Positions 36,121-64,000 of a DNA stretch of 64,000 nucleotides are shown here, one piece after another. The position numbers and the translations under genes are program-made. The stretch lies in NCBI RefSeq assembly GCF_964204645.1, contig NC_134031.1, positions 13,689,807-13,753,806 of the forward strand. Reading direction: 5' to 3'. Source of the DNA: Tubulanus polymorphus. Taxonomy: Eukaryota > Animalia > Nemertea. How positions within the stretch are numbered: the stretch's first letter is position 1; each line of letters opens with the position of its first letter. The notes under the pieces are model-generated. The model did no database searches. It was given only the letters and a program-made list of their open reading frames with translations, and was not told the DNA's origin.

Positions 36121-36138
36121 ATCCCACCGCTGCCACCA
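36121..36138 (-). other. Primer-binding site complementary to the tRNA-Leu 3' end
   Basis: TGGTGGCAGCGGTGGGAT, three bases after the LTR end ...CGGTTACA (36142). Confidence 0.88.
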
Positions 36139-36141
36139 CTT

Positions 36142-38906
36142 TGTAACCGAATAGGCCAGGCACAGTAACCGACTGGCTCTCCGGGCCAGATTTTCTCACA
36201 ACGGCTGCGCCAGACAATATACCGCCGCTCAGTACTGGTCTACAGCTTGGCCTCCCTAACGCACGGGCCGGGCCAAATAACTTCGTCGGGGATCCCCTCT
36301 ACACGTCGTGCCTCCTATCGATTCTAGGTGGGTCTTCGGGTCCAATCGTCCTTAACTTGAAGGCGATCATCAACAACTCGGAATCCTTTCGTTTCCATGG
36401 TAGCGCGTCCTCATTCCAAGGTTGTTCCCGAAACAGGTCGAACTGACTCAGACTCAGATATCCACTCAAAATAAGACATAAGACCGTTATTCGTGAAAAA
36501 TTAACGATTGCCATGTTTATTCAGCTCAACAACGGATTAAAAGAACAGGGTGTTGCTCGTCACTCAAGATCAAAGCAATCTCCCAATACTCGTAATAAAA
36601 TATGTGTACTCTCGGAAATCCCCAGGAACAAGGGACGTTTATAACATTTATAAACTGGTCCTTAGGCATAACGACGGCTCGTAGAACTAATCATGTTCCA
36701 CGGATATAATATTGTACGAAGGCGCGATTAGGCTCACACCCAAAAATGAGAGAGAGAGAGAAAAAGGGGGGGGTTTGAACTATGAGAGTCAAATAATTAA
36801 AAGGCTTGAGTCCGAAGCGGAAATGTCGGTGACGATGAGCAGATCCCAATATCTGAACCCGGCCAAGGACCGACTCGATAATGCCTCCTCTTGAACTACC
36901 ACTACAGGGATTCTTCATCTTGGTTGGAATTCGCCTTCACTGGTGGTCCGACGCAGGGACTGATCAGTTCCCTGGTCCGCCCTTCTTTCTTCGGGACACT
37001 CATCTCTGGTCCTCTTAGGCAGTAAGACATCAAGGGGAGACTTGGTTTCGACCTGGACTACCACTGGCAGCATGGTTGATCGTCACCCGACAAATTCCGA
37101 AACTCAAGGGGGGTCAAGTGACCCAACGAAATATAATACCGTCAAAAATGATATTCCCTCACCCTTCTCTCTCAACTCAGTTTTAAGAAAAATACTAAGG
37201 ACCGCACGCGAAATCGCCCGCGGAAATAAATGCAACGAGGCCTAGGCGACCCCGAATAAAATTCGACTCTACAACGATGCATTGCATAAATGGTTGAAAC
37301 GCGAGGCGGATATAGCCGAAACGGTTAGGTCCCGCCGGCGCATTACTAAAGTCAAACGGCTTAGCTGCCCGATTATCATCTAACTCGAATTAGAACTCAA
37401 GCGTGAGGTATTTCGAGCGACTGGGAGACAGAGAGGAATAGTCCTCGCTGTGCCCCAGTCCCAGCATCACAATGATGTGGAAACTCGTTAGAATAATACC
37501 TAATGTCCGTATTTTAATACTAGAGGGATCGATCGTCGATCGATAATACTTCTCGTGGAATAGGACGGGTAATGCCCCATGATTAAGGCGATTAATGCTT
37601 AAGGAGGGGAGGGAAGAAATCGGCGACAGTGCCAGCACCCGACTGGAACTCAGTCTCTGCAGATTCTCGTCTAACGGCTGACCGGCAGACCCCATTCTTC
37701 GTTCTCTTCGCTTTTCCGTGGACCAATATACCATTCCCGTAGGTGGTCAAACCATCGACATCAGACGTCCTCTCCGGACCTGGCAAATCCCGTAGGCGGC
37801 TGAACCATCCGCACCAATAACCCTCGTCGTCTTCAATAGCCTAGCTATCTGGACCGTCAACGGACTGAGACCAAAATAACCTACCCAAACCAGTCACCAT
37901 CGCCAAAATCCACCCACCCGGGACGGGAATTACCTTAGGTAGAGCTTTAAACAAGGGCTGTCGTTGGAGACAACCTAATACTATCGCAGTGATGATTGGC
38001 GAATACTACAGAAGTTTAGAATAACATGGCGGGCCGGGGACAATCAGGACCTCGCGGCACGGAAACAATAACAAATACCAATAATAAAAGCAACGTAATT
38101 CAATCACATCCCCCCGAGGAAAGGAAACCCGGTCCCCGTCGGGACGCGGGAGGTAGGCCTACAACTTGCTTACATTGTAACTTGGAATATAGTATTCGTT
38201 GGTTAGAGAGAGCTAAATTGAACCATGCGAGTGGTCGACGCTCAGGTCAGAATCCCAAACTAACGCGCTGCCCGCCTTATATAGGGCTCGTTGTCCCCGC
38301 GTTGTCCTGATTGGCTACCCGCCTTTGTCCCCGCTACGCTCCAATAGGTTGAAAATCACGTGGTACGGCGTGACGTCACGATCACGCGTGACTGACCGCC
38401 GTCCACGACGTCGCTCGATCGGAACCTACAAGCATAGATTTATTTATACGAACTCCGGTCCGAGTCGAGCATTAAAAACTCCGAAAAGAAAAAGATTTAT
38501 TATCAAGAGAATATTTAACTTCCAATTAGTTACAAAAAAATGTAGTTCACCGAAAGAGGGAGCACTCAAGCGGTCGGCACCGCGGAGTACCAAATTGAAC
38601 CGACCCGAATCCGGGCGCTACTCGACTTCACTAGAGCGGAATTCATATATCACAATATAACATCGTTAGGATATAAATACGAACGTATTGGTAAGAAGAT
38701 TTAAGACGTACTGATGTGCTTTAAGAGCAGTTTGATTTCTTGAACAACTGGTTCCGCCGAATAGTTATAAAGACGGTAAGACAACATAGTCTGAGTAAAA
38801 TCCCCCAACGAACACAACTCGACTGGACGCGAGCTGAGTTCGTCCCGCAACGCAGTAAGAAAGGTAACCAGGTTATAAACGGGAATAAAGGATAAGGAAA
38901 TTGAAT
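36142..38906 (-). repeat. 5' LTR (ends ...GGTTACA at 36142; first ~160 bp missing)
   Basis: Direct repeat of the 3' LTR; similarity stops abruptly at 38906. Confidence 0.9.
38250..38400 (-). promoter_or_regulatory. LTR RNA polymerase II promoter (copy at ~28475-28625)
   Basis: TATATAAG (~38283), CCAAT boxes, GGCGGG, E-box CACGTG and CRE TGACGTCA (38371) clustered in the sense orientation. Confidence 0.65.
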
Positions 38907-39320
38907 TAAGACAGATCGATGATGAAATAAGGGATTCCCTGGACTTTTTTTGCTTGGAGTAAGGGTACCAAACACGGTGGGGGATTCCCTTGGATATTTG
39001 GCTCGGATGTACTGGCATACCTGTACTGGGATACCCCTCCTTTCTAAAGGTTTGATTATTTCAAAAGTTAGGTTGGGTATGTGGGGCGAAAACCACTTCA
39101 ATGCGTAGCTAAGATGCTGGCCTATGAGCCATAAGCAGGATTTCCCCTGAATTTACGCGCTTATATATGAACTAAACTCTCGAATTTCTTGTTTTTACTA
39201 TAGGATATAGAAGATTTTGGAATAGTGGTCTGAGCTCCGCTGCGCGCCGCTCTAGGTGCGCTGCGCTACGCTGTCACTTCCTGGTTCCGCTGCGGAATTT
39301 AAACATTTAACTAAAAGATC

Positions 39321-41169: not shown

Positions 41170-42144
41170 TTATCCACCGCATGAAAGTTTTTGCAGCGTC
41201 TTTACGAATTTCCTGTTAACTGCACAATAAAGAATGAAATTCACACATGAATTTAAATCACTCGTTACGAAGGCAATATCCATTGCTTTCTCCCATATTA
41301 CAGCATTGGGACTAATATACGATCTAAGCTTGGAAAATGTTGCTGGGATTTCCATAATCAGAAAGGTAATGCTCATCGATATCACCATACGTGTTGCCTT
41401 AGATTCACCGATATTCACTTGTTTTTGTGTGGTCGATAATTCTTTCCGTTGTCTGAACTTGATATAAAGGGTCAGAATAAGACATGTATTTACAATAAGA
41501 ATTAGCAAAGAAGGCACAACCAGTCTGATGATAGGATCCAACAGTTTGTTCAGTGTAATATATTCCTTGGGATATCTTCTTACAAGTCGATTGTTCAAAC
41601 CATGACAAAGGTCCATGTAATTATCTACCCTTAAAGTTATAGGATAATATATAGGCCAAATGAATGTATACAAGGAAAATGAGATGATTATATGGTTCAT
41701 ACGGGATTTAGTCCAAAACCTACCCGCTTTTAATGGAATCGAAACGGCAATGAACCGTTCCAACTGTATCAAAACTGTTAACCAGTTTCGAAGGCACATA
41801 AATCCATTGCGAATTTGAACCGTGCCATAGATGTACATTTTGGGATAAATGTGGAAAGGGTCGATGAATACAAAATCGCCATAAAAAACATAAAACAACG
41901 TATATCTTAAGGTTTCCGCGAGGAAATGACCGAATAGATAACCAACATCTGCAAAAGCCAAACATTTTAACAGATGAATCGACGGGTGAGTAGATTTCAG
42001 CTGCATTAAGGTGGCGATTACGAGACAGTTCATCGCCCAACCCGCTGCCATAATCGGTGGCAGGACGAAGACATTGATATAGAACCGAAGAGACCATTCG
42101 TCATATTGTTGCGTACACGCTTCATTGCGGCTTATATTTTTCAT
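41170..42144 (-). CDS. Intronless class A (rhodopsin-like) GPCR, FMRFamide-receptor-like orphan group, 324 aa
   Basis: Seven hydrophobic helices. GxxxN (TM1), LAFAD (TM2), ERF (DRY-like), FLIMEIP (TM6), NSCVNFILY (TM7). N-terminal sequon NIS. TATAAAG at ~42319 on the minus strand. Confidence 0.92.
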   Translation of the reverse strand: MKNISRNEACTQQYDEWSLRFYINVFVLPPIMAAGWAMNCLVIATLMQLKSTHPSIHLLKCLAFADVGYLFGHFLAETLRYTLFYVFYGDFVFIDPFHIYPKMYIYGTVQIRNGFMCLRNWLTVLIQLERFIAVSIPLKAGRFWTKSRMNHIIISFSLYTFIWPIYYPITLRVDNYMDLCHGLNNRLVRRYPKEYITLNKLLDPIIRLVVPSLLILIVNTCLILTLYIKFRQRKELSTTQKQVNIGESKATRMVISMSITFLIMEIPATFSKLRSYISPNAVIWEKAMDIAFVTSDLNSCVNFILYCAVNRKFVKTLQKLSCGG

Positions 42145-49190: not shown

Positions 49191-50514
49191 TAGGTACCAA
49201 CAATACACGTTTTGAAATATTTTCAGGGTCCGCTGCCTAGTCCTGAACCGTGTTTTAGTCTCTACCTTCGGTTACAGAGACACGCATGGACAGTATGTGT
49301 GGAGTATACTTCTAGAGGGCCACTTGTTGGACAAATTAATTCGCTTGAAATCCGGATTTTTAATGCATACAGGCAGCATAATGAGGAAAACCCATTCACA
49401 AACCGTGCAAGCCAACTTAAACACTATGCTCAATATTCCCTGCAAGACGCAAAATATCTTATTTGAACGTTCATGTATAAAACATGGAGCAAATTTTCTT
49501 TTGTCAACACGTTGATGGGCGACGGACTATGTCACTATGGTATTCTCTGAAGGAGGTAAATTAAATTTGACAGCTAGTTATATAAATGATGCAGCTTTTG
49601 GACAAAAGGGATCTAACTAAATTTTTTTAATTCACTGTGGAATGGAATGGAATGGATTGACGCCAATGGCATGCAGTAGGCCCCTACGTATGCGTCATAC
49701 TGATTAGCGTCAACCAATTAATCTAAATCGGGCAAACCATTCAACAACTGTGAATAATTTATTTGCTGTGGCGTGATAATAATTAATTTTTTTGAAGAAT
49801 TGACATACCAACTGTTAGAAAAATGTACCGATTCTTATTTTTAGACTACTACTGAATCTATAAAAGGAGGAGTCATAGACAAAGTTGATTTGCTTAGCTG
49901 GAGACACTTCTTGTCAAGTACATCATCTCAAGTACTGGGTGTTTTGTAAGTTTAATTTCAGTATTTATTTACTAAGTGCTGTTCTCTCGGACCTCAGTGC
50001 TTTCAAACTAGGCCCACCCAATAGGCTATATAGTCCAGCGGTGTTGTCATATCGCGGAAAGACGGAATCGCGGAATTTTCCAAAAACGCGGAATTTCTTC
50101 ATTTTTACTTTGAATAGTTAGTAAACGGGTTTTCCCACGGGGATACCCACTGTCGGACAGGGCACCGGACCGATCGATGCAACGACTTAGGTTCGAATCC
50201 CATTACTTGCAGGCAATTTTATATGGAATCATTATATTACGATACCGTTGACTGGCTGCCACCTGTAGAAGAAGTCAGAATCAAGTGAGGTGAAAGAGAC
50301 CAGGCACCTAATGTCTATTTCTACTAGGCAAACTTCGGTTATCGAAGTTCATCGACTTTTTGAGAATTTCAGAAGCGAATATTATCGGATAAATATTGAG
50401 CACGTTCGCGGTGTCGGACCGTAGTTGTAGATGGTTGCAAACATGAAATCCTACGACCAAACAAGTACCGGTTCAAATTCCTTTGAAATTATTATAATTT
50501 TACGGCCGTCCAGT

Positions 50515-50701
50515 AGTAATAGGGATAATAGGCTTTCATACCAAAGGTCGAAGGGTCGAGCTCGTAAAAAAATGAAAATAATAATTTACAGTTGAATTAG
50601 TCGCGCACACTCCTAATTCAACTGTAAATTATTATTATTTTCATTTTTTTACTCACTCGCCCCTTCAACCTTTGATACGAAAGCCTATTATCCCTATTAC
50701 T
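50515..50701. repeat. Terminal palindrome, ~86-bp imperfect arms with a ~12-nt loop
   Basis: agtaatagggataataggctttc...gttgaattag / ctaattcaac...gaaagcctattatccctattact. Confidence 0.9.
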
Positions 50702-50781: not shown

Positions 50782-51021
50782 ATGGAAGCAAATAAATACT
50801 ACTGCCCAACATGTAATATCGATATAGATAAATCCCAAAAAGCAAGACACAATAAAACTATAACACATTTAGAGAATAAATTGAAACTAGAGTATTCAGA
50901 ACAGTTAACAAAAGGAAAGAAATTTATTGAATTATGGAATAATGATCCAAATAATGAACAATACGTTGAGGAATTTGATATCAAGGAATCGAAACAACTT
51001 ATCAAAAGCAGTGAGGAATGA
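50782..51021 (+). CDS. Small C2H2 zinc-finger protein, 79 aa
   Basis: YYCPTC-x11-HNKTITH. Confidence 0.65.
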   Translation: MEANKYYCPTCNIDIDKSQKARHNKTITHLENKLKLEYSEQLTKGKKFIELWNNDPNNEQYVEEFDIKESKQLIKSSEE

Positions 51022-51098
51022 AAAAGGATGACGTTGGTCGAAGAAATGGAAGAGGATTCTAAAATTATTAACCAATTTAATAAAAATATATATTTTAA

Positions 51099-51899
51099 AT
51101 GGAAAGTACACAAACTATAAATATAAACAATAATGGTGTAATAAATATATGCTATAAGAAATGTAATAAGTGTGAATTGAATAAATCATTAACAGAATTT
51201 CATAATCATAAAAAAACTAAAGATGGTAAAAATTGTTATTGCAAAACTTGTTATAAACTATATAATAAACAATATCGAGCAAATAATCCAGAAAAATATA
51301 AAGAAAAATATAAACAATGGAGAGAAAATAATCCAGAAAAATGGAAAGTTTATAATAAACAATGGCGAGAAAATCACCCAGAATATATGAGAGAATGGAG
51401 AGAAAATCACCCAGAATATATGAGAGAATGGAGGGAAAATAATAGAGAGAATATTAACAATTATCAAAATGAAAAATATCAAACAGATCTAAATTTTAAA
51501 ATAAAAAAATGTTTGATAAATAGATTAACACAATTATTCAGTAAAGACAGTCACTCATACACACTATCTAATTTACTAGGTTGTTCGGATGAATTCTTCA
51601 AATCATGGATAATATTTCAATTCGATGATAAAATGAATATAAATAATTATGGCAATTATTTTCATATTGATCATGTGTTGCCTATTTCTAAATTTGATAT
51701 GAATGATGAATATGATAAAAAGTTAATATGGAATTGGAAGAATCTAAGACCTCTTGAAAAGAAAGAAAATATGATTAAACATGACAAACTAGATTTACAG
51801 TTATATTTGAATCAACTGGATAAAGCAAAGAAATTTATTGATCAATGGAACAATAATCCAAATAATGAACAATACGTTGAGTTTTTAATGAGTGGTTAA
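51099..51899 (+). CDS. HNH-type endonuclease-like protein with a Cys4 zinc module and WRENxPE repeats
   Basis: CNKC...CKTC; HIDHVLP...NWKNLRPL...N..K, the pattern of large-DNA-virus HNH proteins. Confidence 0.75.
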   Translation: MESTQTININNNGVINICYKKCNKCELNKSLTEFHNHKKTKDGKNCYCKTCYKLYNKQYRANNPEKYKEKYKQWRENNPEKWKVYNKQWRENHPEYMREWRENHPEYMREWRENNRENINNYQNEKYQTDLNFKIKKCLINRLTQLFSKDSHSYTLSNLLGCSDEFFKSWIIFQFDDKMNINNYGNYFHIDHVLPISKFDMNDEYDKKLIWNWKNLRPLEKKENMIKHDKLDLQLYLNQLDKAKKFIDQWNNNPNNEQYVEFLMSG

Positions 51900-52146
51900 A
51901 GAATAATATATCTCAAATAAAATATAATAAAAATTACATACCTTCAACTATCTATTATTTCTATTTTAATTTTTAATATTTTCTTTTCAAAAAAGAATAC
52001 TTTATATTTTGAATAGATCCGAATAGAAATTCTTTAAATTCAAATAGCTAGTATCAGTAGTCAATACTAGAATTCTTTAACTTTAACTAGCTAGTATCAT
52101 TTTATAATACTTATAATACTATTCTTATTAAATTTCTCTAATATAA

Positions 52147-52749
52147 ATGTCAAAGAAATCTAATAAGAATAGTATTGATATTGAAAAAACATTAGATGAT
52201 TTAGGTATTAGTGATAATAAAGATACAGTTGTTTCTAATTCTATTCAAGTTAATAACAATATAGATTATGAATACTATTTATATTGTAAGCACCATCTTG
52301 AATTATTAATTGCTGGCGGGAAATCTAAGGAGTTTTTAAATAGAATCATTACTTTTCAAGAACTAGATGCTATGAAACCCGATCAAGTAATAAAATATTT
52401 TAAGATTTATGAAGAGTCAAGATTAGCTAGAATAAATGATTCTATTTCTAATGGTATTGTCAAATGTTATTCAAAATTATGTAACCAGTTAATACCAATT
52501 GATGATGAAAATAAATTATATAATGATTTGAAAAATGACTATTTAGTTATGACTGAATTACAAAAATGGGTCGGTTATGCTTCATTTCAATTAGGATCGG
52601 TTATGACATTGATTTCTACTGGAGTTATAACATTTTCGAATATCAAACCTATGGAATATAAATCAGGTAAGAACGAAACAGATGTACTACAACCAAACGT
52701 CGAAACAGAAAATGAATCAGAACAAAAATTAACTAAAATAAATGAGTGA
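52147..52749 (+). CDS. Polinton hypothetical protein, 200 aa, with a C-terminal hydrophobic segment
   Basis: Long ORF with a TAAATG start that overlaps the next gene. Confidence 0.7.
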   Translation: MSKKSNKNSIDIEKTLDDLGISDNKDTVVSNSIQVNNNIDYEYYLYCKHHLELLIAGGKSKEFLNRIITFQELDAMKPDQVIKYFKIYEESRLARINDSISNGIVKCYSKLCNQLIPIDDENKLYNDLKNDYLVMTELQKWVGYASFQLGSVMTLISTGVITFSNIKPMEYKSGKNETDVLQPNVETENESEQKLTKINE

Positions 52750-53101
52750 TAGCGTTAAGAAAAAGCCTAGATCAGAGAAACAAATTAAATGGGCAAGAGA
52801 ATTAGGTAAAAGATCATCAGAATTAAAAAAAGCTAAGAAAAAGAAATTATCTGATATAAATGAATCTGATGGTATTGATTCAAATAATAATCCATCTGAT
52901 TCTTCTAATGTTGGAAGTAATTATAAATTATATATTACAATTGGATTAGTAACAGTTATTATATTATCCGGTGTAATATATAAATCAAAATTCAAATCTG
53001 ATGATAAAGATGATTCCAATGATGATAAACCTATTATACCAGAAAATAAGTCAAATCATAAATCAAATGAAAATAAATCTAAAATATTATTAATGGATTA
53101 A
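52742..53101 (+). CDS. Basic N-terminus, single-pass membrane protein, 119 aa
   Basis: KKKPRSEKQ... N-terminus; TM segment LYITIGLVTVIILSGVIY. Confidence 0.7.
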   Translation: MSDSVKKKPRSEKQIKWARELGKRSSELKKAKKKKLSDINESDGIDSNNNPSDSSNVGSNYKLYITIGLVTVIILSGVIYKSKFKSDDKDDSNDDKPIIPENKSNHKSNENKSKILLMD

Positions 53102-53104
53102 AAT

Positions 53105-54193
53105 ATGATGAAAAAAGAACAATATTTGAGAGATTTATATTATAACCCAGAAAGTGAAGTATCATATTCAAGTGTTTCGGAATTATGGGATAAAATTAAA
53201 TCTGATAAAGAAAAAATAAAATATAGTGAATTAAAATCATGGTTACAAAATCAACCCACATATCAAATTCATAAAAAGATGGATAAAAAATATTTAACAA
53301 GAAAAGTAATGGTTTCATATATCGATCAACAATGGCAAGCTGATTTAATTGATATGAAGAACTTAGAAGAATACAACAAAGGATATTTCTGGATACTGAA
53401 TGTTATAGATATATTCAGTAGATACGCATGGAGTATCCCGATTAAAAATAAAACTGGTATAGAAGTTACAAATTCTTTCAAATTAATATTTAAAGAAGCT
53501 ATTCCAGATAAGATACAATTTGATGAAGGTAAGGAATTTTATAACAAACATTTTAAAAAACTATTAATTGATAACGATGTAGAATATTTTTCAACACATT
53601 CAGATAAAAAAGCATCTGTTATAGAAAGATTTAATAAAACATTGAAAACTAGAATGTGGAAATATTTCACCGCTAATGAAACATATAAATATATCGATGT
53701 GTTAGATGATTTAGTGAAAGGTTATAATAATTCTAAACATAGTTCTATAAATATGAAACCTATACAAGCTAGAAAAGAAGATAATTCGGAAATAGTTTGG
53801 AATAATTTATATGGCGCATTTGTTACACATGATTTTGGAGAACCTAAATTTAAAATAGGACAACATGTTAGAATTTCTAAATATCGAAAAACATTTTATA
53901 AAGGTTATACCCCTAATTTTACTGAAGAAATATTCAAGATTAAAAAGATAATATTAACTAAACCATTTGTTTATAAACTAGAAGATTTAAAAGATGAAGA
54001 AATATTAGGTTATTTTTATGAACAAGAATTATCATTAGTACCAAATCCAGATGAAATAGAATACAAAATAGAAAAGGTATTGAAAACAAAAACTCTTAAA
54101 GGAAAAAAGTATTCTTTGGTGAAATATAAAGGATATGATGATAAATTTAATGAATGGATTTTATCTAGTAAAATTAAAAGAATAAATGAATAA
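53105..54193 (+). CDS. Retroviral-like (rve) integrase with a C-terminal chromodomain
   Basis: WQADLID / QFDEGKEF / IERFNKTLK form an intact DDE triad; YKIEKVL...LVKYKGYD...NEW is chromodomain-like. Confidence 0.95.
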   Translation: MMKKEQYLRDLYYNPESEVSYSSVSELWDKIKSDKEKIKYSELKSWLQNQPTYQIHKKMDKKYLTRKVMVSYIDQQWQADLIDMKNLEEYNKGYFWILNVIDIFSRYAWSIPIKNKTGIEVTNSFKLIFKEAIPDKIQFDEGKEFYNKHFKKLLIDNDVEYFSTHSDKKASVIERFNKTLKTRMWKYFTANETYKYIDVLDDLVKGYNNSKHSSINMKPIQARKEDNSEIVWNNLYGAFVTHDFGEPKFKIGQHVRISKYRKTFYKGYTPNFTEEIFKIKKIILTKPFVYKLEDLKDEEILGYFYEQELSLVPNPDEIEYKIEKVLKTKTLKGKKYSLVKYKGYDDKFNEWILSSKIKRINE

Positions 54194-54800
54194 AGATTTA
54201 TTTATATTTGAACCACATAATATGTTAGTTACTGGAGTTACAAATTGTGGTAAAACACACTTCATATTAGATTTGTTAGAAACTATTTATAAGAATCATT
54301 TTGATAATATAATATTATTCTGTCCTACATATGAAATGAATGAAACGTATAATAGAGATATAGTTTTTAAAGATAAAAAGTTTATTATATTAAATTCTAA
54401 AACAGTGAAAGAAAATTTAGATAATTGTATAAAAATTGCATTAGATATTTTTAAAGGATCAAATACATTATTTATTATTGATGATTGCGCAAATTTACAT
54501 GATTCTAAAATTAGAGAAAGTGAGTTATGTTATTTAGCTTTCTCTGGTAGACATTTTGGGATAACAACATGGGTTTTAAATCAAAAATATAATTCAATTG
54601 TTAAAGACTTTAGGGAGAATATAAGATTTCTAGTTTTATTCTACAACAAAGATAGAAAATCTATGCAACAATCATTGGAAGAAAATCAAATTATACCTCC
54701 TGAATTACATGATGAATATATGAATAAATTAAAGAATAATAAAGGTTCAAAATTATTACTGAGATTACAATTTCCATATGAATACAAATTTATAAAATAA
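54186..54800 (+). CDS. A32/FtsK-like genome packaging ATPase
   Basis: Walker A GVTNCGKT, Walker B FIIDD, and SGRH...Q motif. Confidence 0.92.
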   Translation: MNKDLFIFEPHNMLVTGVTNCGKTHFILDLLETIYKNHFDNIILFCPTYEMNETYNRDIVFKDKKFIILNSKTVKENLDNCIKIALDIFKGSNTLFIIDDCANLHDSKIRESELCYLAFSGRHFGITTWVLNQKYNSIVKDFRENIRFLVLFYNKDRKSMQQSLEENQIIPPELHDEYMNKLKNNKGSKLLLRLQFPYEYKFIK

Positions 54801-54822
54801 CTATTTGTATACCTATGTATTA

Positions 54823-54885
54823 GATACCCTAATACCTGATACCCTAATACCTGATACCCTAATACCTGTTACCCTATTAGATACC
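54823..54885. repeat. 15-bp tandem repeat (GATACCCTAATACCT) between the convergent gene blocks
   Basis: Three exact units and one degenerate unit. Confidence 0.85.
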
Positions 54886-54935
54886 TTAAATAATTTAAAC
54901 CCCCTTTTTTTATTTACTATTATTTTATACAATTT

Positions 54936-55880
54936 TCAACCTTTATTATTTTTGAGTGTTAGATAATCAATTTCTGAATCACTTTCACTATCAGATGACT
55001 CTAACAACATATTTAAATGCTCTACCGAATCTACATTAACATCTTTATAATTTTTTTTCACCTTTTTCACCTTTTTCACCTTTTTTTCCTTTTTTATCTT
55101 TTTTACCTCATCATCAATAGTTGTTTCATTTTTTAACTTATTCTTCCAATCAAATTTATTATTATTTTCTACTTTAAGTTTTATAGAATCTTTATTATCA
55201 ATATGTTTAACTGTAACTATATCATCATGTGGGTCATGTGGGTGTATGGCATCATTTTCATTATCATCTTTATTAGTGTTTGCTCCTAATATTTCATTTA
55301 CAGTGTTTGATCCTAATATTTCATTAGCATCGGTTAAATCTAATTCATCTTTATTAGGTGTTGCTGATAATAAATCTTCATACATTTTTTCACCATTTAC
55401 TTTTTTATTTGAAACAAACTTTGTAACATATCTAAATGGGTGTTCTATAAATTCTTTTTTACCAACACGTTCTATAACATTAGTAATATGTGAATTTGTA
55501 TTCATATGTTTATTCCAATTTGATGGAGCGTTTGAAAATTCACCATTACAATAACCACAATAATTTCTATTTTCACTAACATCTAATATTATTGCATTAT
55601 TTGATGTAGAAGGTATTATATTATTTGATGTAGAAGGTATTACAGATGTAGAAGGTATTATATTATTTGATGTAGAAGGTATTACATTATTATCAATTAC
55701 ATTACTTAAATTATCAACAACACCACTTTTATTATTATCGATTTCTATCAGTTTAGTTTTATAATTTTTAAAAATAGGATCAAATATCAAAGCTATATTA
55801 CAAGGTATTACATAATATAAACCATCATTATTTTCATGTGTATCGATGTAAGGAATATGTTTATATACTTTACCTTCCAT
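54936..55880 (-). CDS. Hypothetical protein with a U1-like zinc finger, IPSTS repeats and a Lys-rich tail, 314 aa
   Basis: YCGYC...WNKHMNTNSH; TAAATG start. Confidence 0.7.
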   Translation of the reverse strand: MEGKVYKHIPYIDTHENNDGLYYVIPCNIALIFDPIFKNYKTKLIEIDNNKSGVVDNLSNVIDNNVIPSTSNNIIPSTSVIPSTSNNIIPSTSNNAIILDVSENRNYCGYCNGEFSNAPSNWNKHMNTNSHITNVIERVGKKEFIEHPFRYVTKFVSNKKVNGEKMYEDLLSATPNKDELDLTDANEILGSNTVNEILGANTNKDDNENDAIHPHDPHDDIVTVKHIDNKDSIKLKVENNNKFDWKNKLKNETTIDDEVKKIKKEKKVKKVKKVKKNYKDVNVDSVEHLNMLLESSDSESDSEIDYLTLKNNKG

Positions 55881-55912
55881 TTATTATATATATTTTTATT
55901 AAAGTTAAAATT

Positions 55913-57160
55913 TTAATACATAACACTATCTAATTGTGAATTTATAATATTTAATTGTGCGTCAGATATAATATAAATATGCATTTTAAAATTTTTGATT
56001 CCCTTTTTCTTTGTCATGAATAATTGTATTCCATCTTTTGTATTTTGTAATTTTTTCCCAGAACCATGTAATGAATTATCCTCTGTTGTTCTAAAATCTA
56101 ACCATAATGCAAATTTATTACCGGTATAATAATCAATTTGATTAATGTTACAATTTTCAGATGATTTTACTTTTTCATTCATAAAATGTTTTTTAATTTC
56201 TACCCATTGATCTATCATTCTCATTCCTTGACAAAATATTTTATTTGCTATTCCTTCGATAGTTATTTCTACTTTTGTTATTTCAGGATTATAATAATTA
56301 TCAACATTTATTGCACCATTAGTATACGTTCCAATGGTAAAAAATATTAATATACCTTTAATAGATCTTCTAGGAAAGTTAATATTCTCATTAATTATTT
56401 CATCATTTGCATTAATAGTTACAGTTTTAAATTTATCAATATAATCATATAATAATGAAAATCCTTGATTGTATTGAGTTTGAATTATACTTGAAATATT
56501 TTCATCAGTTACTGTATCATATTCTAAACATATATTCGATAATTTATAACTCATATCTTTATTAACGCTAGATAATACAATTTCATTTACAGGAGCAAAT
56601 GTTATCTCAAATATAATATCTTCTTGAATTGCGTATTTATATAAAGGTGCATTATTATTTATCAATTCAAAGTCTAATGGAATTTTATATTTGCTTCCAT
56701 ATATACTTTTTATCAATTTATCTACATCATTTGTTAATATTGCGCTATTAGCTTCTGATCTTAATTTATTTTGGTTTTCTGATTGGATGCCTTGAAATAT
56801 CATATTATTTCTATTTTCTTTAGTTAACCATAAATCTTTATAATGCATAAATAAATTATAATCATCTAATGAGAAAACTGTTTCTGGACCAATCTTTATT
56901 GTTAACTTTTTAATCAAATATCTTCCAACATTATCAACGACATAATTATTATTATTACCGATTACTTTTATATCGGCTGATAAATAAATACTGTTTGGAA
57001 CATAAAAAGTATTTTGTGTTAATCTAGGAATTCTAACATATAAAGTTTCATCGGGATTAATATTTGAAGGGTTATGAGTAATTATATGATGTGATCTTTC
57101 TGCTTTAATAGCATTAGATATTCTAGAAATCTTAGAGGGACTTATATAACTCCCACTCAT
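55913..57160 (-). CDS. Probable double jelly-roll major capsid protein, 415 aa
   Basis: Size, beta-rich pattern, HNPS.I.P...LYVRIP.L N-terminus typical of invertebrate Polinton MCPs, and genomic context. Confidence 0.75.
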   Translation of the reverse strand: MSGSYISPSKISRISNAIKAERSHHIITHNPSNINPDETLYVRIPRLTQNTFYVPNSIYLSADIKVIGNNNNYVVDNVGRYLIKKLTIKIGPETVFSLDDYNLFMHYKDLWLTKENRNNMIFQGIQSENQNKLRSEANSAILTNDVDKLIKSIYGSKYKIPLDFELINNNAPLYKYAIQEDIIFEITFAPVNEIVLSSVNKDMSYKLSNICLEYDTVTDENISSIIQTQYNQGFSLLYDYIDKFKTVTINANDEIINENINFPRRSIKGILIFFTIGTYTNGAINVDNYYNPEITKVEITIEGIANKIFCQGMRMIDQWVEIKKHFMNEKVKSSENCNINQIDYYTGNKFALWLDFRTTEDNSLHGSGKKLQNTKDGIQLFMTKKKGIKNFKMHIYIISDAQLNIINSQLDSVMY

Positions 57161-57205
57161 TTATTTAACAAAAAAAATTAATTATTTATTTTTTGATATC
57201 ATAGT

Positions 57206-58900
57206 TTACTTGATATTTTTTGATATCATATTTACTAAACCAAAAATAATAGCACTTACAACTGTAATTAAAAATAAAATAATATGTTCAGCAGCAAAGT
57301 TAATAATGTTTCCTGCAGATTTCAATATAAAACCAACAATTGAAGCAATAATTCCTGGTAAAGCTGCAGCAGATTTCTTTGATAGTTCCCATAAATATTT
57401 TGCTAATTTCTTTAAACCATCCTTAACTTTATCTTGTATAGAATTATTACCTGGAGGTTTATCTGGTTTATTGGGAGTGGGAGTAGGAGTAGATTTCAAA
57501 GCATTTGATATAGCTAAACCAATTGTTGTAAATAACATAGTTACAGCTGTTAGAATTGAAAGAATTGTTATTCCTTCTAATTTAAATAATAACTTTATTC
57601 TGTCTTTTAATGATATTTCAGAATTTGGTTTAATCAATAAATCTTTAAAAATAACTTTTAATCTATTTATATTATAATCATATGATTTTAACAATAATTT
57701 AATTTCTTCTTTTTGTAATTCTATGTTATATTCTAAATCATCTTTTTCTTTTTCTAAATATGCATTTCTTTTTTTAAATTCAATTTCTTCAATAACTTTA
57801 TTATCTCTATCTAATTTTAGTTGTTCTATTTCTTTATTTTTATCAGTTAATTCTTTTTTTAAAGTTCTAATTTTAAAATCTCTTATACTTTTATCATGCG
57901 CAATTTTATCAGCTGATTCTTGCGTACCTTTAATTTCTCTACGTGTTTGTTCAGGAAATGCTTCTAATTCATCATCAGTTAAATCAAATAATCCTTTTTC
58001 TAGTAAATATTGCAGTCGATTTATTCCAGTACTATTCATTTCTTCTTCTGAATCTCTTAATCTATCAATTTGTTTTTCTAATTGTAATTTACTTGAATCA
58101 TTATCAATTTGTTGAGTGTCTCTTCTCGATGTTTCGGGTGTTGAAGATCTTAATCTATCTAATCGATTTCTATTCTCTTCCATTTCTGGATCAAAATCAG
58201 TAGGATTTGGATTTGGATTTTTAAATGGTGAATATTTGTTTATATCAATATTAGGAATTGGTTCTTCTTCATTTATTCTATCGATTGCATTCCATATAAT
58301 TCTGAGAAATTCTCTACCACCTTTTGAACCTTCAATTGTAGATAATGCTCGCATTCCGGGTTCAAAAATATTTTCTTGACCCATTCTAGATAATTGAATT
58401 GATACAGTATTCCTATTTAATTCAAGATTATAATACCATGAATCATTTTTAAATTCTAAATTATTCGTGAAATATGGGTCATCTTTAAAAATTTGTTCTA
58501 CAATATCTTCAGTATCAATTTCATCTATTACAACTTTTGGTAATAGTTCGTTAACAATTGTATCTGTTACTCTAGATTTCATTTTATATAATTCCATAGG
58601 TTTATCAGGATATTTTTCTTGTTGTTCTACTAATAGTTTCATAAATTCTTTTCTTTCTGTTCTAGTTGAAATTCTGCCCCTTTCAGGAGCTTCTAAATAT
58701 TTATTTAATTTTTCACGTAATTCGGGATCATCATCATAATCATCATCATAATCATCATCTTCGCCTAAATTAGTATTATATGCTGATTCATCATCATTAT
58801 CAATATTAGTTTCTGCATCATTATAATCATCATCAATATATCCTTCATTATTATTTCCCATTTCTCCCATTTCATAATCTTCTCCACCTTCTACATCCAT
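57206..58900 (-). CDS. 564-aa protein: acidic N-terminus, long coiled coil, several C-terminal hydrophobic or amphipathic helices
   Basis: GITILSILTAVTMLFTTIGLAI; LPGIIASIVGFIL; IILFLITVVSAIIFGLV. Confidence 0.8.
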   Translation of the reverse strand: MDVEGGEDYEMGEMGNNNEGYIDDDYNDAETNIDNDDESAYNTNLGEDDDYDDDYDDDPELREKLNKYLEAPERGRISTRTERKEFMKLLVEQQEKYPDKPMELYKMKSRVTDTIVNELLPKVVIDEIDTEDIVEQIFKDDPYFTNNLEFKNDSWYYNLELNRNTVSIQLSRMGQENIFEPGMRALSTIEGSKGGREFLRIIWNAIDRINEEEPIPNIDINKYSPFKNPNPNPTDFDPEMEENRNRLDRLRSSTPETSRRDTQQIDNDSSKLQLEKQIDRLRDSEEEMNSTGINRLQYLLEKGLFDLTDDELEAFPEQTRREIKGTQESADKIAHDKSIRDFKIRTLKKELTDKNKEIEQLKLDRDNKVIEEIEFKKRNAYLEKEKDDLEYNIELQKEEIKLLLKSYDYNINRLKVIFKDLLIKPNSEISLKDRIKLLFKLEGITILSILTAVTMLFTTIGLAISNALKSTPTPTPNKPDKPPGNNSIQDKVKDGLKKLAKYLWELSKKSAAALPGIIASIVGFILKSAGNIINFAAEHIILFLITVVSAIIFGLVNMISKNIK

Positions 58901-58916
58901 TTACATAATAAAAAAA

Positions 58917-60305
58917 TTAAAATTTAAAATATAATATTCCTCCGATTACAATTCCTATACAAGTTATAGCTAATTTAGTATTTTCATGTGATTTATTATC
59001 ATCATTTAGTTTAATTATATCATGTTGAATTTTATCGGTTCTATTATTTTCTGATGTATTGTAATCTTTTATTTTAGAATCATTATTTAATTTAATATTC
59101 TTAGTTTTAGTTTCAGTTGATTGAATATGTTTTTTATTTTTTTCACCTTCCATTAATTTTGGAGCAGTAATAATCTTTTTATTTATATCATTTAATCCAA
59201 ATGAATTATTTATTGTTGCAGTTTTAATTAGATTATTATAACCAATTATGTTTCCCATCTTTAATACTAAATCATTAGAAATAATTAATAGATTAGGGCC
59301 TATACAATAATTAAGTCTTACATGAGATTTATCTAAATAATTTTGATATCTTATAATGTTTTCTGGAATCGATCTATTTTTATCATTATGAATTGAATCT
59401 TCAAATAAAACTTTAAATTGTTTTTGTGTATCAAATGATGTATTCAAATTTCCAATTATCGGTGATCTTGTTTCAACTTGTGATCCTAGAATACAAATCA
59501 AATAAGTTCTAATAGATTGATTTATTCTTTCTATACCTGATTTTGTAAAACCTTCACTATTCTCTAAAATAAAATATACCCAACCATTATTGTTTTCTTG
59601 TTTTAAATTATCATAAAATTTCGGTAATTTATTGAAATTTAATGTTTCTAAATCCTTTGTTTCTATTTTACCATAACCTAATTTTTTATTATAGATATTA
59701 TAAAAACTATTAGATGGTATAGGAAGTGCGCAATATTCTGCAATCTTTCTAGGGCAAGGAAGTGATCTTATTGTTCCAATTTTTGTTCTAAAATCAGAAT
59801 TATTTATATCTATATTAAATTCATTACAAATCTTATAAAACTTAGATAAATTAATATTATTATCTAATTCTTTAAAATATCTAGATCCTGGTAAAGCGCA
59901 CTCTAATTCATTTAATATTATTCTGATTTGAAAGTATGTATGAAATCTAAATAAACTTTGAATTAGTTTATATTTAGAATTATTCAAATGATCATTCCAA
60001 CTAATTCCACAACCTGTTGTTGCACAATAAACAGCAAAATTTAATTGATTCTGCCAATACTTCATATTAGATTTTAATAACCATTGTTTTTCATCTTTCA
60101 ATTTTTTAAAATTAATTGAATATACATGAAATATATTTTCCATCTTTGCATTAAAATTATTAGTTTCAGTAACATAAATATATAAATTAGTTAATGAATC
60201 TAAAACTTCATTTCTATATGTAATATCTTTATTAAAATCTATTGCTGGAATATTATATTTAATTGATTTATTATATTGGAACGCTTTTGGAAAACTATCT
60301 ACCAT
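58917..60305 (-). CDS. 462-aa protein with a C-terminal membrane anchor
   Basis: Long ORF; WQNQLNFAVYCATTGCG motif; C-terminal LAITCIGIVIGGILYF. Confidence 0.8.
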   Translation of the reverse strand: MVDSFPKAFQYNKSIKYNIPAIDFNKDITYRNEVLDSLTNLYIYVTETNNFNAKMENIFHVYSINFKKLKDEKQWLLKSNMKYWQNQLNFAVYCATTGCGISWNDHLNNSKYKLIQSLFRFHTYFQIRIILNELECALPGSRYFKELDNNINLSKFYKICNEFNIDINNSDFRTKIGTIRSLPCPRKIAEYCALPIPSNSFYNIYNKKLGYGKIETKDLETLNFNKLPKFYDNLKQENNNGWVYFILENSEGFTKSGIERINQSIRTYLICILGSQVETRSPIIGNLNTSFDTQKQFKVLFEDSIHNDKNRSIPENIIRYQNYLDKSHVRLNYCIGPNLLIISNDLVLKMGNIIGYNNLIKTATINNSFGLNDINKKIITAPKLMEGEKNKKHIQSTETKTKNIKLNNDSKIKDYNTSENNRTDKIQHDIIKLNDDNKSHENTKLAITCIGIVIGGILYFKF

Positions 60306-60321
60306 TTATATAATTAAAAAA

Positions 60322-60756
60322 TTAATAATTTATTAATTCTTTAAATAATTTATCTTGTTCTTCAACTGTTATATGACCATTTAAACTTATTATATAATCT
60401 AGTGTATTCTTTAATTTATTAATTTCTTTTATATTAGTTTTGATTTTTTCTTTATTACTTTTTATATTTAATTTTGAACTTATACCAGTTAAAACACTTG
60501 AACTTAATCCTAACACACCAATTGATATAGCTAAAGGTGTTAATGGACTGAATATTGCTAGAAATGTTATTACAGAACTAATTGTAACCGAACCACTTAT
60601 AATCAAATAATATATAATTTTACTTTTTAAATATTTTTTCTTTTTTATCTTTAAGTCACTTTCAAATTCTAATATTTGTTTTTCTAAATATGTTTTTAAT
60701 TTAGTTTTATTTATATCATGAGGAATAATATCAATACTATCAACTTTATCTTCCAT
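60322..60756 (-). CDS. Two-TM coiled-coil protein, 144 aa
   Basis: Hydrophobic hairpin IIYYLIISG...ISIGVLGLSSSVLTGI flanked by Lys-rich helices. Confidence 0.75.
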   Translation of the reverse strand: MEDKVDSIDIIPHDINKTKLKTYLEKQILEFESDLKIKKKKYLKSKIIYYLIISGSVTISSVITFLAIFSPLTPLAISIGVLGLSSSVLTGISSKLNIKSNKEKIKTNIKEINKLKNTLDYIISLNGHITVEEQDKLFKELINY

Positions 60757-60775
60757 TTATTTAGAATAAAATTTA

Positions 60776-61198
60776 CTAATTAGTAAATTCATAAGCAACA
60801 AATATAACAATAACTGTTCCACCTAAAATCCAAATTATTTCATATTTCTGTTGTTCTTTACTTGGGGTATAATAATCTGATAATATGGGTTTGTATAGAT
60901 GTAATTTTTCTTTATTTGTTACTGCGTTATATAAACTCATTGCATCATCAACTGATTGAAAATCTCTATGTGAAATCTTCTGATCATATAATTCCTTGTT
61001 AATATAATCCATATAGTTTTGTCTCTTTTCTCTATATTCTTCTGCATCTTTATTATATTTCTCTAACGCTAAATTATGTCTTTTTTGTTCTCCTAATGAA
61101 CCATTTTTATCAATATGTTTAAATAAATAACCACCACCAGTAAATGCTAAAGCGTTAACGATTGCCGATCCTATAATAGTTATAATTGCAGAAGCCAT
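60776..61198 (-). CDS. Membrane protein with N- and C-terminal hydrophobic segments, 140 aa
   Basis: MASAIITIIGSAIVNALAF...; IIWILGGTVIVIFVAY. Confidence 0.75.
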   Translation of the reverse strand: MASAIITIIGSAIVNALAFTGGGYLFKHIDKNGSLGEQKRHNLALEKYNKDAEEYREKRQNYMDYINKELYDQKISHRDFQSVDDAMSLYNAVTNKEKLHLYKPILSDYYTPSKEQQKYEIIWILGGTVIVIFVAYEFTN

Positions 61199-61222
61199 TT
61201 ATTTAGCAAAAAAATTATGCAT

Positions 61223-61444
61223 TTATATGGGAGGAATATATTTTTGTTTTTCTAAATAATCAATAGTTAAATTAGATAAAGTAACTGCTAATGTTAACTT
61301 TAGAATATCATTTATATCAAATCTATCAACATTAACACTTCCCATTTTGAATACTTTTTTTAATACCATTGAATAACCAACAGTTCCAACTGATAGTAAT
61401 GCGCCATTATATAATCCAGTTATTATCCACTTATTATCACTCAT
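61223..61444 (-). CDS. Small hydrophobic protein, 73 aa
   Basis: TAAATG start, tight packing, two hydrophobic helices. Confidence 0.65.
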   Translation of the reverse strand: MSDNKWIITGLYNGALLSVGTVGYSMVLKKVFKMGSVNVDRFDINDILKLTLAVTLSNLTIDYLEKQKYIPPI

Positions 61445-61447
61445 TTA

Positions 61448-61801
61448 TTAATCAAAAAAATTACTATCTTCAAAATATTTAGTTAACTTATTTATGATTA
61501 ATTCAACATTTATTTTATTACTAGTTTCATTTGTATATATTTCAATTATTATTTTTTTAATATCATCGATTATAAAATCTTCATCTAATTCATAAAATCT
61601 TAAAGATTCTCTAATTAAATTAGTAATCTTTTCTACATTTAAAGTTTCTTTATCTATTGTTGTTTCATACTCAAATGTTGTTTCATTAGAAAATGCAATA
61701 TTTTTGATATGTGTTATTACATCATTAATGTTAAATTTCATTTCTTTCTCACGTTTAAAATCAAACCCAAAACATATACTCGGTCCAACAGTTATATTCA
61801 T
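61448..61801 (-). CDS. Hypothetical protein, 117 aa
   Basis: TAAATG start; fills the gap between neighbouring genes. Confidence 0.65.
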   Translation of the reverse strand: MNITVGPSICFGFDFKREKEMKFNINDVITHIKNIAFSNETTFEYETTIDKETLNVEKITNLIRESLRFYELDEDFIIDDIKKIIIEIYTNETSNKINVELIINKLTKYFEDSNFFD

Positions 61802-61817
61802 TTATATAGTGAAAAAA

Positions 61818-62576
61818 TTACTCTTTACATCTTATAACTAATTCATAAATTACGGGGAAATTATTTAAATCAATTAAGTATCCATTATGATTTCTAATTT
61901 CTAATCTAAAATTATTAAAATGAGGAATGCAAGGTTTAAAATCACATTCAGCTAAATTATAATTTAATTGCGTTCCAAATTGTTTAACATTTTTTAATGG
62001 TAAAATATTTAATATACTAGAATTACATGTTGTATCTTTAGTTGCTTCGAATGTTTTTGTTGGGTCAATAAAATTGCAATAAATATAAAAATGTGTAAAA
62101 GGTATTATATTTGAATTACCGTCTACGTTTCCTGTAACAGTTTGTGGTTTAATTCCTAACAGTTTAGCTAAAGGTTTCCTTACCATAAATGCATGTTTGT
62201 TTTCATCATCTAACTTTATTTTAATTTTATTAGAACTATCACTTTTTATAAATCTAATTGAAAATTTATCTTCACTTTTAAGTTTTAATCGTGCTCTCCG
62301 ATTAATTTCTTGTGCTAATGTATCTAAATTATATAATCCTGGTTTTAAAATTAGTTGAAACCATTTATTTATATTTCTAATATGAATTAAAAAGTCTCTA
62401 TGATCAAAACTTTTATCCGATATATTATGAAAAGAATTACATAAACTTATATTAACTAATTTTAAATCTACACAATTCTTAAATTCTCTATCTAATTGTA
62501 CTAATAAATTATGAGATTTATAATTTGTAAGTTTTCTAGAATCAACAAATATTCTGTATTCTTTTAATTCCGCCAT
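61818..62576 (-). CDS. Probable minor capsid (penton-like, single jelly-roll) protein, 252 aa
   Basis: IFVDS, PGLYN...L...IN, KLLG, YIYCNFI and IRNHNGYLIDLN pattern, as in Polinton minor capsid proteins. Confidence 0.65.
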   Translation of the reverse strand: MAELKEYRIFVDSRKLTNYKSHNLLVQLDREFKNCVDLKLVNISLCNSFHNISDKSFDHRDFLIHIRNINKWFQLILKPGLYNLDTLAQEINRRARLKLKSEDKFSIRFIKSDSSNKIKIKLDDENKHAFMVRKPLAKLLGIKPQTVTGNVDGNSNIIPFTHFYIYCNFIDPTKTFEATKDTTCNSSILNILPLKNVKQFGTQLNYNLAECDFKPCIPHFNNFRLEIRNHNGYLIDLNNFPVIYELVIRCKE

Positions 62577-62593
62577 TTATTTTACATATTTTC

Positions 62594-62935
62594 TCATTCG
62601 AAATCTATTTCATGGTGCCCTTTTTCATTCTTACCTTTGTATACGAAATAGAAATCTCCAGAACATAATTCTTCTAGATCTTCACTTGATAATCTATGAA
62701 ATCTATCTGGTAAATAAGTTCTGAATTTATGTATATTTCCTTTTAATCCTTCATATTCTAAATGAATTACTAATTTATCTCCATATTTGTTAGTAACTGT
62801 AACAATGTTAGTAATTAAATATTTCTTGTGAATTGTTAACTCAGTTAGTTTTTTGAATTTATGATCTACAGATTTTACATTTGTGGTATCTTTAATTCTA
62901 TCTAAGAATTCATTGTGTACTTGTTTACTCTCCAT
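62594..62935 (-). CDS. Hypothetical protein, possibly OB-fold ssDNA-binding, 113 aa
   Basis: Adjacent to PolB, with beta-strand pattern KYLIT...TNKYG.KLVI...YLP.RF. Function is inferred only. Confidence 0.55.
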   Translation of the reverse strand: MESKQVHNEFLDRIKDTTNVKSVDHKFKKLTELTIHKKYLITNIVTVTNKYGDKLVIHLEYEGLKGNIHKFRTYLPDRFHRLSSEDLEELCSGDFYFVYKGKNEKGHHEIDFE

Positions 62936-62963
62936 TTATTATACAAATTTTTATTGAAATTGA

Positions 62964-64000
62964 TTAACACGCTAGAATCCTTTTCATAATCTCATTTTCT
63001 TTTGTTTCTTCTCTTTTGAATTTTATATATTCATCTAAATTGCAACCATAGGCGACTGTGTGGATTCCATCATCTAAAATATATCTTTTATCATCAAATG
63101 GGTTTAGACTTATCTTCTCTATCTCTTCAATATACATTTCATGATCTTCAGATCTTAAACATTTCATCTTATGTTTTCTAACTTCTTCATTAAATATACA
63201 ATTGATGTAATCTTTGAAATGAATATTCTTTTCAACAACGCTTTTGGTAATTCCTTTTAACTTTTTAGCTTCATGTTCTTTAGTTTTATATGAATACATT
63301 TTAGATCTAATACCAATGAACTCTATCATTTCTTCACCACCTAATTCATCCTTAAACTTCCCAGGAACTTTTTTATTATCATTGCTAAACAATTCATGAT
63401 TTTTAGGATAATTACTAAAATCAAAATGGTGTTTTAATGTTTTTAAATCATCTGTTATGTTATCAGTTTTTATCTTTAATATGTAATTGTTGGTATCAAA
63501 GTATAGAATTTCTATGTGTTTTTCTCCAAAATGAGGTTGTAATATGTTATAATAAAATTGATACATTAATAACTTTGAAATTTCTAGAACTGATGCACCA
63601 ACATAAATAGGTTTATTGAACTTCATTGAAGTTCTTTTCATTTTAACTGCTGCTAAATTTTCATCAAATATTCTGTTACCTATAAACTTAGGATATGATT
63701 GTAAATGTCTAATTCTTTTACCATTACTAACTAACTCAATATCATTTCTATTTCTAATATTTTCACAAGTCTTACCATAGAATGCATTATTCATTAACTT
63801 GAAGAAATCTTTTTCAAAATCAGTTTTAGATTTAGTTCTCTGTGTAGTATTAAAATCTATATATTTTTCTAACCATTTAGATTGATTAAATGAAATATAT
63901 CTATGTACTTTTTTTATAATCATTCCTTGATTCAAATAAAACTTCAACATTCTATAATGCACAACGTAATTATATTTATCTTCTTGAGTTACCATTAACT
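62964..64000 (-). CDS. Protein-primed family B DNA polymerase, C-terminal part (5' end outside the window)
   Basis: KLMNNAFYGK (motif B), YFDTNN (altered motif C), KDE, SKMY and KLKGI motifs. The frame is open to the window edge. Confidence 0.95.
   Translation of the reverse strand, partial: LMVTQEDKYNYVVHYRMLKFYLNQGMIIKKVHRYISFNQSKWLEKYIDFNTTQRTKSKTDFEKDFFKLMNNAFYGKTCENIRNRNDIELVSNGKRIRHLQSYPKFIGNRIFDENLAAVKMKRTSMKFNKPIYVGASVLEISKLLMYQFYYNILQPHFGEKHIEILYFDTNNYILKIKTDNITDDLKTLKHHFDFSNYPKNHELFSNDNKKVPGKFKDELGGEEMIEFIGIRSKMYSYKTKEHEAKKLKGITKSVVEKNIHFKDYINCIFNEEVRKHKMKCLRSEDHEMYIEEIEKISLNPFDDKRYILDDGIHTVAYGCNLDEYIKFKREETKENEIMKRILAC

Follow-up and report, generated by a model that had tools for sequence, protein, structure and literature searches.

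A stretch of 64,000 nts from the genome of the nemertean Tubulanus polymorphus (NC_134031.1, positions 13,689,807 to 13,753,806; hereafter the window, in whose coordinates positions are given) carries an integrated element, about 13.5 kb of which lies within the window. As judged from sequence and predicted structures, this element is a Polinton, with an rve integrase, an A32 ATPase, a double-jelly-roll capsid protein, a penton protein and part of a DNA polymerase of family B (PolB). Its genes start at TAAATG, a motif in which TAA directly abuts the start codon, and TAAATG starts are a trait of one capsid clade. On sequence comparison the motif is of the type found in cytoplasmic large DNA viruses, although it does not name a helper, and by analogy with virophages the genes of the element are probably transcribed by an RNA polymerase supplied by a co-infecting virus of this kind.

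The part of the element within the window contains 16 genes with visible starts (50782 to 62935). The original prediction had placed TAAATG at 14 of them, with two exceptions, and this was borne out at every position: TAA abuts the ATG at 14/16 gene starts, compared with 29 of the 518 other ATGs of the element (5.6%; binomial P ~3e-16 for gene starts). The exceptions are the gene at 50782 (TAAAATG) and the integrase gene (TAAAAT.ATG, whose TAA is the stop codon of the preceding 119-aa gene), and a TAAA is present within 8 nts of the ATG at 16/16 starts. As also predicted, the TAA is the stop codon of the preceding gene at none of the 14 TAA-ATG starts; it closes an upstream in-frame ATG frame (1-16 codons) at five of them and no such frame at the other nine. 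Runs of at least five T, announced upstream of several starts, were found between -20 and -5 at 6/14. Two further features were absent from that description. A T occupies position -12 at 14/14 TAAATG starts of the window versus 36/106 TAAATG sites that are not starts (p 1.4e-6), and four starts (50782, 51099, 55880 and 62935) form an A-rich class with AATAAAA about 9-12 nts upstream. The T-tract class is exemplified by the promoter of the capsid gene (57158..57178, minus strand), with an A at -18, a tract of eight T over -12 and TAAATG. When a position weight matrix was built from relatives alone, the ten best-scoring of 536 ATGs were real starts of the window, and 14/16 starts ranked in the top 24; the same matrix applied to host DNA gave 1.2 for the best of 1666 ATGs, compared with 15.2 for the top start of the element.

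The distribution of the motif was analyzed in 83 loci obtained from a 46-sequence capsid alignment (the best 80 of 157 metagenome matches plus three). The clade comprises 16 loci with capsids 50-77% identical to that of the window, a cut that was set post hoc, and the other 67 are referred to as sister loci. The capsids of the clade (the 14 that were long enough and that of the window) formed one branch of 15 among 59 rows in a quick, midpoint-rooted tree (SH-like approximate likelihood-ratio test, 99). At starts anchored by homology, TAA-ATG was found at 35/40 in the clade (14 loci) versus 0/116 in sisters (59 loci); TAA is the commonest codon before the clade ATG, and TGA occurs once. When all non-nested open reading frames of at least 100 aa were considered and the near-duplicates L002 and L011 dropped, the counts were 49/58 and 6/332. 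Position -3 is a T in 90% of clade starts and a purine in 89% of sister starts. A comparison with unrelated AT-rich Polintons had been set beforehand as one able to refute the prediction, and it came out in favour of the prediction: in the 15 sister loci below 37% GC, TAA-ATG was found at 0/22 starts (p 2e-12 versus the clade), with a purine at -3. The motif is also present in clade members of 36-44% GC. As the clade has a single origin, these counts show confinement to the clade and not repeated evolution. The element and the 67 sister loci have a core gene set in common, consisting of capsid, ATPase, integrase, PolB and five core genes with no assigned function.

The shape of the promoter was deduced from 68 TAAATG starts of the window and 13 clade loci (L002, L011 and L015 being left out). 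T at -12 is present at 62/68 (91%) and A at -18 at 50/68, compared with 36/106 and 31/106 for non-start TAAATG sites, and T at -13 is present in 75%. In L009, L010, L012 and L013, the two TAAATG initiators of divergent gene pairs are separated by 18-24 nts. Within a block of eight genes to which the capsid gene belongs, runs of at least five T precede 21/35 starts, versus 4/24 other starts (p 0.001, with a post hoc grouping), a distribution hinting at two timing classes.

Transcription by a helper polymerase would explain together the fused initiator, the T that runs against the Kozak preference, a spacing fixed over 20 bases, the pairs of promoters placed back to back and a switch limited to one clade. 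The signal, short and made of two parts (an A-rich one at -18 and a T at -12, before TAAATG), would be read by the late-stage RNA polymerase of the helper and not by that of the host, and the element would behave like a virophage. If vaccinia virus is taken as a guide, transcription would start in the A run, where slippage of the polymerase would give the mRNA a leader of poly(A). The T at -3 would stay out of the mRNA, and this would account for the pyrimidine found at -3 in place of the purine that sisters keep. The provirus would be silent until infection by the helper, upon which capsid, penton, ATPase and integrase would be made, A-rich starts possibly acting earlier than T-tract starts. 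By analogy, the element might act in defence of its host. If there is a helper, the chances appear evenly divided between a pox- or egovirus-like virus on the one side and, on the other, a large DNA virus that is iridovirus-like or of another kind. The original prediction is partly supported: transcription by a co-infecting cytoplasmic DNA virus is likely, with the AT-rich sisters and the match to vaccinia in its favour, but the helper need not be a poxvirus. In a more specific and rather doubtful scenario, a branch of animal Polintons would have given up host promoters for those of a pox-like virus of the cytoplasm, with two timing classes retained and the terminator of that virus avoided. 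The element would then be the integrated virophage of an undiscovered invertebrate relative of poxviruses, an inducible antiviral provirus in the genome of an animal; were this true, the 20-base promoter could serve as a probe in looking for the helper.

Signals on the coding strand were analyzed with synonymous-codon shuffles giving the expected numbers of TTTTTNT and AATAAA. The motif TTTTTNT is the early terminator of poxviruses. In the genes of the clade and the window it was observed 22 times versus 51.7 expected, with 15/15 loci under expectation, whereas AT-rich sisters contained 46 versus 49.8 expected, with 10/15 loci below (p 0.002 for the difference between clade and sisters). Sisters of intermediate GC were somewhat low as well (12 versus 18.8 expected), and the iridovirus-like loci described below contained 281 versus 316 expected. 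The depletion in the clade, not shared by AT-rich sisters, counts in favour of a helper; it may reflect a T-rich terminator or the avoidance of cryptic T-tract promoters.

Several observations weigh against transcription by a helper. In the window alone, TTTTTNT occurs 5 times versus about 7 expected, which is not significant; a role as terminator 3' of stop codons was not supported, the motif being unenriched there and present at 2/14 convergent ends. To our knowledge, late genes of vaccinia are not expected to obey the TTTTTNT rule. AATAAA is depleted neither in the clade nor in sisters and does not discriminate between them. Tight packing of genes had been presented as incompatible with promoters of RNA polymerase II: gaps of 3-45 bp were indeed found (11 of 16 intergenic gaps, two others being 8-bp overlaps and three longer), but short spacers fail as evidence because motif-free sister Polintons are as compact (median spacer 18 bp, 117 tandem pairs). 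Integration into animal DNA is seen in this window alone, the relatives with capsids at least 50% identical all being on contigs of at most 17 kb. The search for a helper through shared genes identified none: for the deoxynucleoside kinase (dNK), one viral contig, 37% identical and with TAA at 1/12 starts; for the HNH protein, one weak viral match and none in the two records searched. The upstream matrix did not separate seven orthopox promoters (median -3.2) from 117 iridovirus-like ones (median -4.2; p 0.23), the clade median being 3.4. Finally, the element continues past position 64000 and could encode there a transcription factor of its own.

The dNK genes are carried by two clade loci (L003, 10340-10981, and L007, 2895-3377) and were absent from sisters by tblastn; these accessory genes, like the HNH gene described below, count in favour of a helper. 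A dNK domain is also found fused to a PolB-like protein in P0271 and to an HNH-like protein in P0209.

In a first alternative, the motif would be a core promoter peculiar to the element and used by the nuclear RNA polymerase II of the host, with or without a factor encoded by the element, its likeness to pox promoters being convergence among AT-rich initiators. This explanation fits the equal compactness of sister Polintons, the lack of an assigned function for several genes of the window and the figure key of a preprint that names VLTF3 among the genes of such elements. We nevertheless judge it unlikely: no TBP or VLTF3 family match was found in 17 proteins of the element and 16 proteins of the clade; TAAA used as an initiator would leave a templated leader of 2 nts, and used as a TATA box would place the start within a conserved reading frame. 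Trans-splicing is opposed by the lack of an AG acceptor, and -3 carries a T instead of the purine of sisters. That AT-richness or chance alone generated the motif, as the ~23% GC of the element could suggest, has virtually no probability, being refuted by the excess at gene starts, by the AT-rich sisters, by the clade members of higher GC and by the preference for T at -12 and A at -18 over non-start sites.

The element might alternatively replicate autonomously in the cytoplasm and bring an RNA polymerase of its own, as do the linear plasmids pGKL of yeast. These plasmids have a protein-primed PolB, and the element is AT-rich; in passages of PMC6211774, the RNA polymerase of pGKL has poxviral affinity and is paired with a TAAAN initiator at which slippage occurs. 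There is little to recommend this model when neither an RNA polymerase nor a capping gene is found in the 16 clade loci or in the 13.5 kb of the element that the window covers, when little room is left for one (PolB relatives reach ~1360 aa and the longest clade contig 16.9 kb), and when the element has an integrase and lies within host DNA. A role in translation, with TAA-ATG as an in-frame stop blocking read-through or permitting re-initiation on polycistronic mRNA, would suit the tight packing and the five TAA codons of 14 that close a short upstream frame. The other nine close none, the codon before the clade ATG is TAA at 35/40 starts and TGA at only one, a ribosome would require neither the fixed positions -12 and -18 nor the pairs set back to back, and equally packed sisters do without the motif, so that this role too appears highly improbable. 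A helper resembling African swine fever virus was rejected as a poor fit for the initiator: according to passages of PMC7163114, transcription of that virus terminates at poly(T), but its late initiator is TATA.

The boundary between host and element is marked by a drop in GC from ~38% to ~23% near 50600. The likely left terminus (50512..50701) consists of AGTAGT followed, where the GC content changes, by an imperfect palindrome of 187 nts (50515-50701), predicted to fold with -68.2 kcal/mol (z -16.5; 0/200 shuffles as stable). Polinton termini are of the AG/short-repeat type. No second copy of the hairpin was detected in the window and none in L001-L083; viral contigs contained only matches of at most 17 nts, and there was no Rfam match. 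The hairpin is near-perfect with few bulges and recalls the hairpin ends of large viruses; it may possibly be an unrelated foldback insertion instead.

Six genes on the plus strand follow. The first (50782..51021) encodes a zinc-finger-like protein of 79 aa (zf-U1, E 0.004, below the cut-off) and has A-rich sequence upstream of its TAAAATG. The second (51099..51899), of the A-rich TAAATG class, encodes a 266-aa HNH/endonuclease-VII-like protein (phrog_1035, E 8e-18), with homologs in four clade loci, whereas tblastn found none in sister loci. A 60-nt repeat, 90% identical, is present in the tails of these two genes (50911-50970 and 51822-51881), which suggests a partial duplication. Next are a conserved core gene of 200 aa with no assigned function (52147..52749, TAAATG) and a clade-only gene of 119 aa with a hydrophobic stretch (52742..53101), whose TAAATG lies within the preceding gene. 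The retroviral-type integrase (53105..54193) has an rve domain over the cut-off (E 9e-9) and a chromodomain under it (Chromo, E 8e-5). The A32-type packaging ATPase (54186..54800; Pox_A32, E 1.5e-12) starts at a TAAATG within the integrase gene, as it does in relatives. Between this gene and the convergent one that follows (54800-54936), three to four copies of a 15-mer were found; short tandem or palindromic repeats between convergent genes were also seen in L001, L005, L007 and L008, and may mark 3' ends.

The remaining genes are on the minus strand. A clade-only gene of the A-rich TAAATG class encodes a low-complexity protein of 314 aa (54936..55880). The double-jelly-roll major capsid protein (55913..57160, 415 aa) was predicted with a mean confidence (predicted local distance difference test, pLDDT) of 89; its fold matches the capsids of Paramecium bursaria chlorella virus 1 (PBCV-1) and of iridoviruses (E 1e-17, 10-14% identity), all BFVD matches being distant, at most 15% identical. 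No relatives of the capsid gene were found in viral contigs. Two conserved core proteins with T-tract TAAATG starts come next, one of 564 aa with a coiled coil and a hydrophobic C-terminus (57206..58900), the other of 462 aa with no assigned function (58917..60305) and with neither a family nor an Atlas match. A 144-aa protein (60322..60756, TAAATG) gives a weak SLATT-like signal of two membrane helices (SLATT_fungal, E 0.004 and 0.001, under the cut-off). Three T-tract TAAATG genes encode a conserved core protein of 140 aa (60776..61198), a conserved hydrophobic core protein of 73 aa (61223..61444) and a 117-aa product with a homolog in L003 only (61448..61801). The minor capsid (penton) protein (61818..62576, 252 aa, TAAATG; predicted structure pLDDT 92) has a fold closest to that of the mavirus penton (E 3e-12), and the 113-aa gene upstream of it (62594..62935, TAAATG of the A-rich class) again has a homolog in L003 only.

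The Polinton-type PolB (62964..64000, minus strand) is cut by the window edge and only its C-terminal part is present; by homology it belongs to the protein-primed polymerases of family B. Its relatives are 83-86% identical and ~1360 aa long, some being named in arthropods, and one of them, P0277, matches DNA_pol_B_2; P0277 also carries an intein with a LAGLIDADG domain. The usual pattern of the PolB catalytic motif matches in 13/17 of the closest relatives and in 103/120 matches but not in the window copy, which, from its sequence, may be inactive.

Outside the element, the window contains a Gypsy-type LTR (long terminal repeat) retrotransposon (28400-39000) with a pol frame of 1292 aa; it is flanked by long repeats on either side and has an extra frame in antisense that encodes a peptide repeated in tandem. 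A single-exon G-protein-coupled receptor gene of the rhodopsin family (41170-42144) lies ~8 kb from the element; together with the retrotransposons of the flank, this gene indicates an animal host. Among the contigs with Polinton capsids, L081 (CAZXYA010000753.1), L082, L083 and P0046 are labelled as bacterial or archaeal genomes, probably through binning contamination.

The nature of animal Polintons is debated, as they are viewed as autonomous nuclear viruses, as mere transposons or as parasites of larger viruses; no virions were reported in the parts of the literature searched. Promoter mimicry is already known in virophages of protists, and PLVs (Polinton-like viruses) of poxviruses have been proposed. 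No report of a TAAATG promoter motif in Polintons was found in the open-access literature, from which subscription papers and preprint supplements could differ. The word 'promoter' is missing in the main texts of PMC11296320, PMC11131425, PMC10748475, 10.64898/2026.10.13.758929 and 10.64898/2026.06.19.733378, and apparently also in that of the egovirus preprint (10.1101/2024.03.23.586382). The clade departs from its sisters in the very feature that predicts helper dependence among protist virophages, which makes the question testable, and its motif may point to an unrecognised large DNA virus of invertebrates.

The closest promoters are those of vaccinia. According to passages of PMC11980589, late promoters have TAAAT, mostly followed by G, with a conserved T 10 nts upstream, and intermediate promoters have TAAA with an AT-rich stretch farther upstream; in passages of PMC12917281, TAAA is read by the polymerase itself, and in passages of PMC6211774, slippage of the polymerase at TAAA generates poly(A) leaders. 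The clade shares with these post-replicative promoters the TAAAT(G) fused to the start codon, the upstream T (-12 in the clade, in agreement within one base), an A-rich variant and a length of ~20-30 bp. It differs in that the promoters are here on an integrated capsid-encoding Polinton and in that T at -12 and A at -18 vary less than in a sample of seven orthopox genes. The identification of TAAATG and a T-tract with the poxvirus late promoter therefore holds for the match to vaccinia but not for specificity to poxviruses, as the following counts indicate.

Scans of IMG/VR with the clade motif covered 11 of 64 parts and gave 121 loci (flanks for 80), a second scan giving 59 loci, mostly chance matches. 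Those rich in TAAATG belonged to orthopoxvirus-like records, to a virophage of the Sputnik type and to giant viruses other than poxviruses; three of the latter share one capsid type, the tested member of which had a grouper iridovirus as its best match. Iridovirus-like loci were then compared as the best 80 of 521 (L279-L358), chosen, like the orthopox loci, without reference to the motif. TAAATG was found at 35/104 orthopox starts (10 loci, seven distinct promoters) and at 117/595 iridovirus-like starts (20%; 80 loci), accounting for half or more of the starts in seven loci. T at -12 was present at 43/49 clade starts versus 61/117 iridovirus-like ones (p 8e-6). These uncultured giant viruses resemble the clade in having a T-rich tract and a TAAA initiator, but the initiator often floats 1-5 nts before the ATG, and TTTTTNT is little depleted. 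A T-tract and TAAA initiator precede the capsid gene in, for example, L317-L320 and L293, and no published account of it was found in the literature search. In the Sputnik-type virophage (L258/L257/L157), the capsid, ATPase and other genes are at T-tract TAAATG (6/10 starts), and L258 is a candidate virophage of an iridovirus-like giant virus. Virophage-type capsid families PF21915/PF22031 match strongly in L258 and in none of the 46 capsid sequences of the alignment.

Among integrated elements, mavirus/EMALE04 with Cafeteria roenbergensis virus (CroV) is the nearest precedent. As described in passages of PMC10945749, it is likewise integrated, carries rve integrase, PolB and capsid genes and has one type-specific late-like motif that sister types do not have, and only EMALE04, which bears the CroV late motif, reactivates; further passages on such precedents are found in 10.1101/2025.10.09.676808 and 10.64898/2026.07.28.741278. 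The host there is a flagellate and not an animal, the capsid family and the motif are others, and helper dependence and protection, demonstrated in that system according to these passages, are inferred only for the present element. The entomopoxvirus-associated PLVs had been put forward for comparison. Such PLVs have been reported (passages of Barth et al. 2024, PMC11296320) and are, like the present element, small double-jelly-roll animal elements, proposed to be parasites of poxviruses. The gene set nevertheless differs: in those passages they encode a mu-like protein, a phospholipase and a protease but lack an rve integrase, and the reverse is true here, no protease, phospholipase or mu-core gene of these PLVs being found in the window part of the element. 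Nor did an adenovirus-type cysteine protease match any protein of the window (the element up to 64000) or of the clade. The animal Maverick/Polinton sisters have the same core genes as the element but keep a purine at -3 and start their genes without TAA-ATG.

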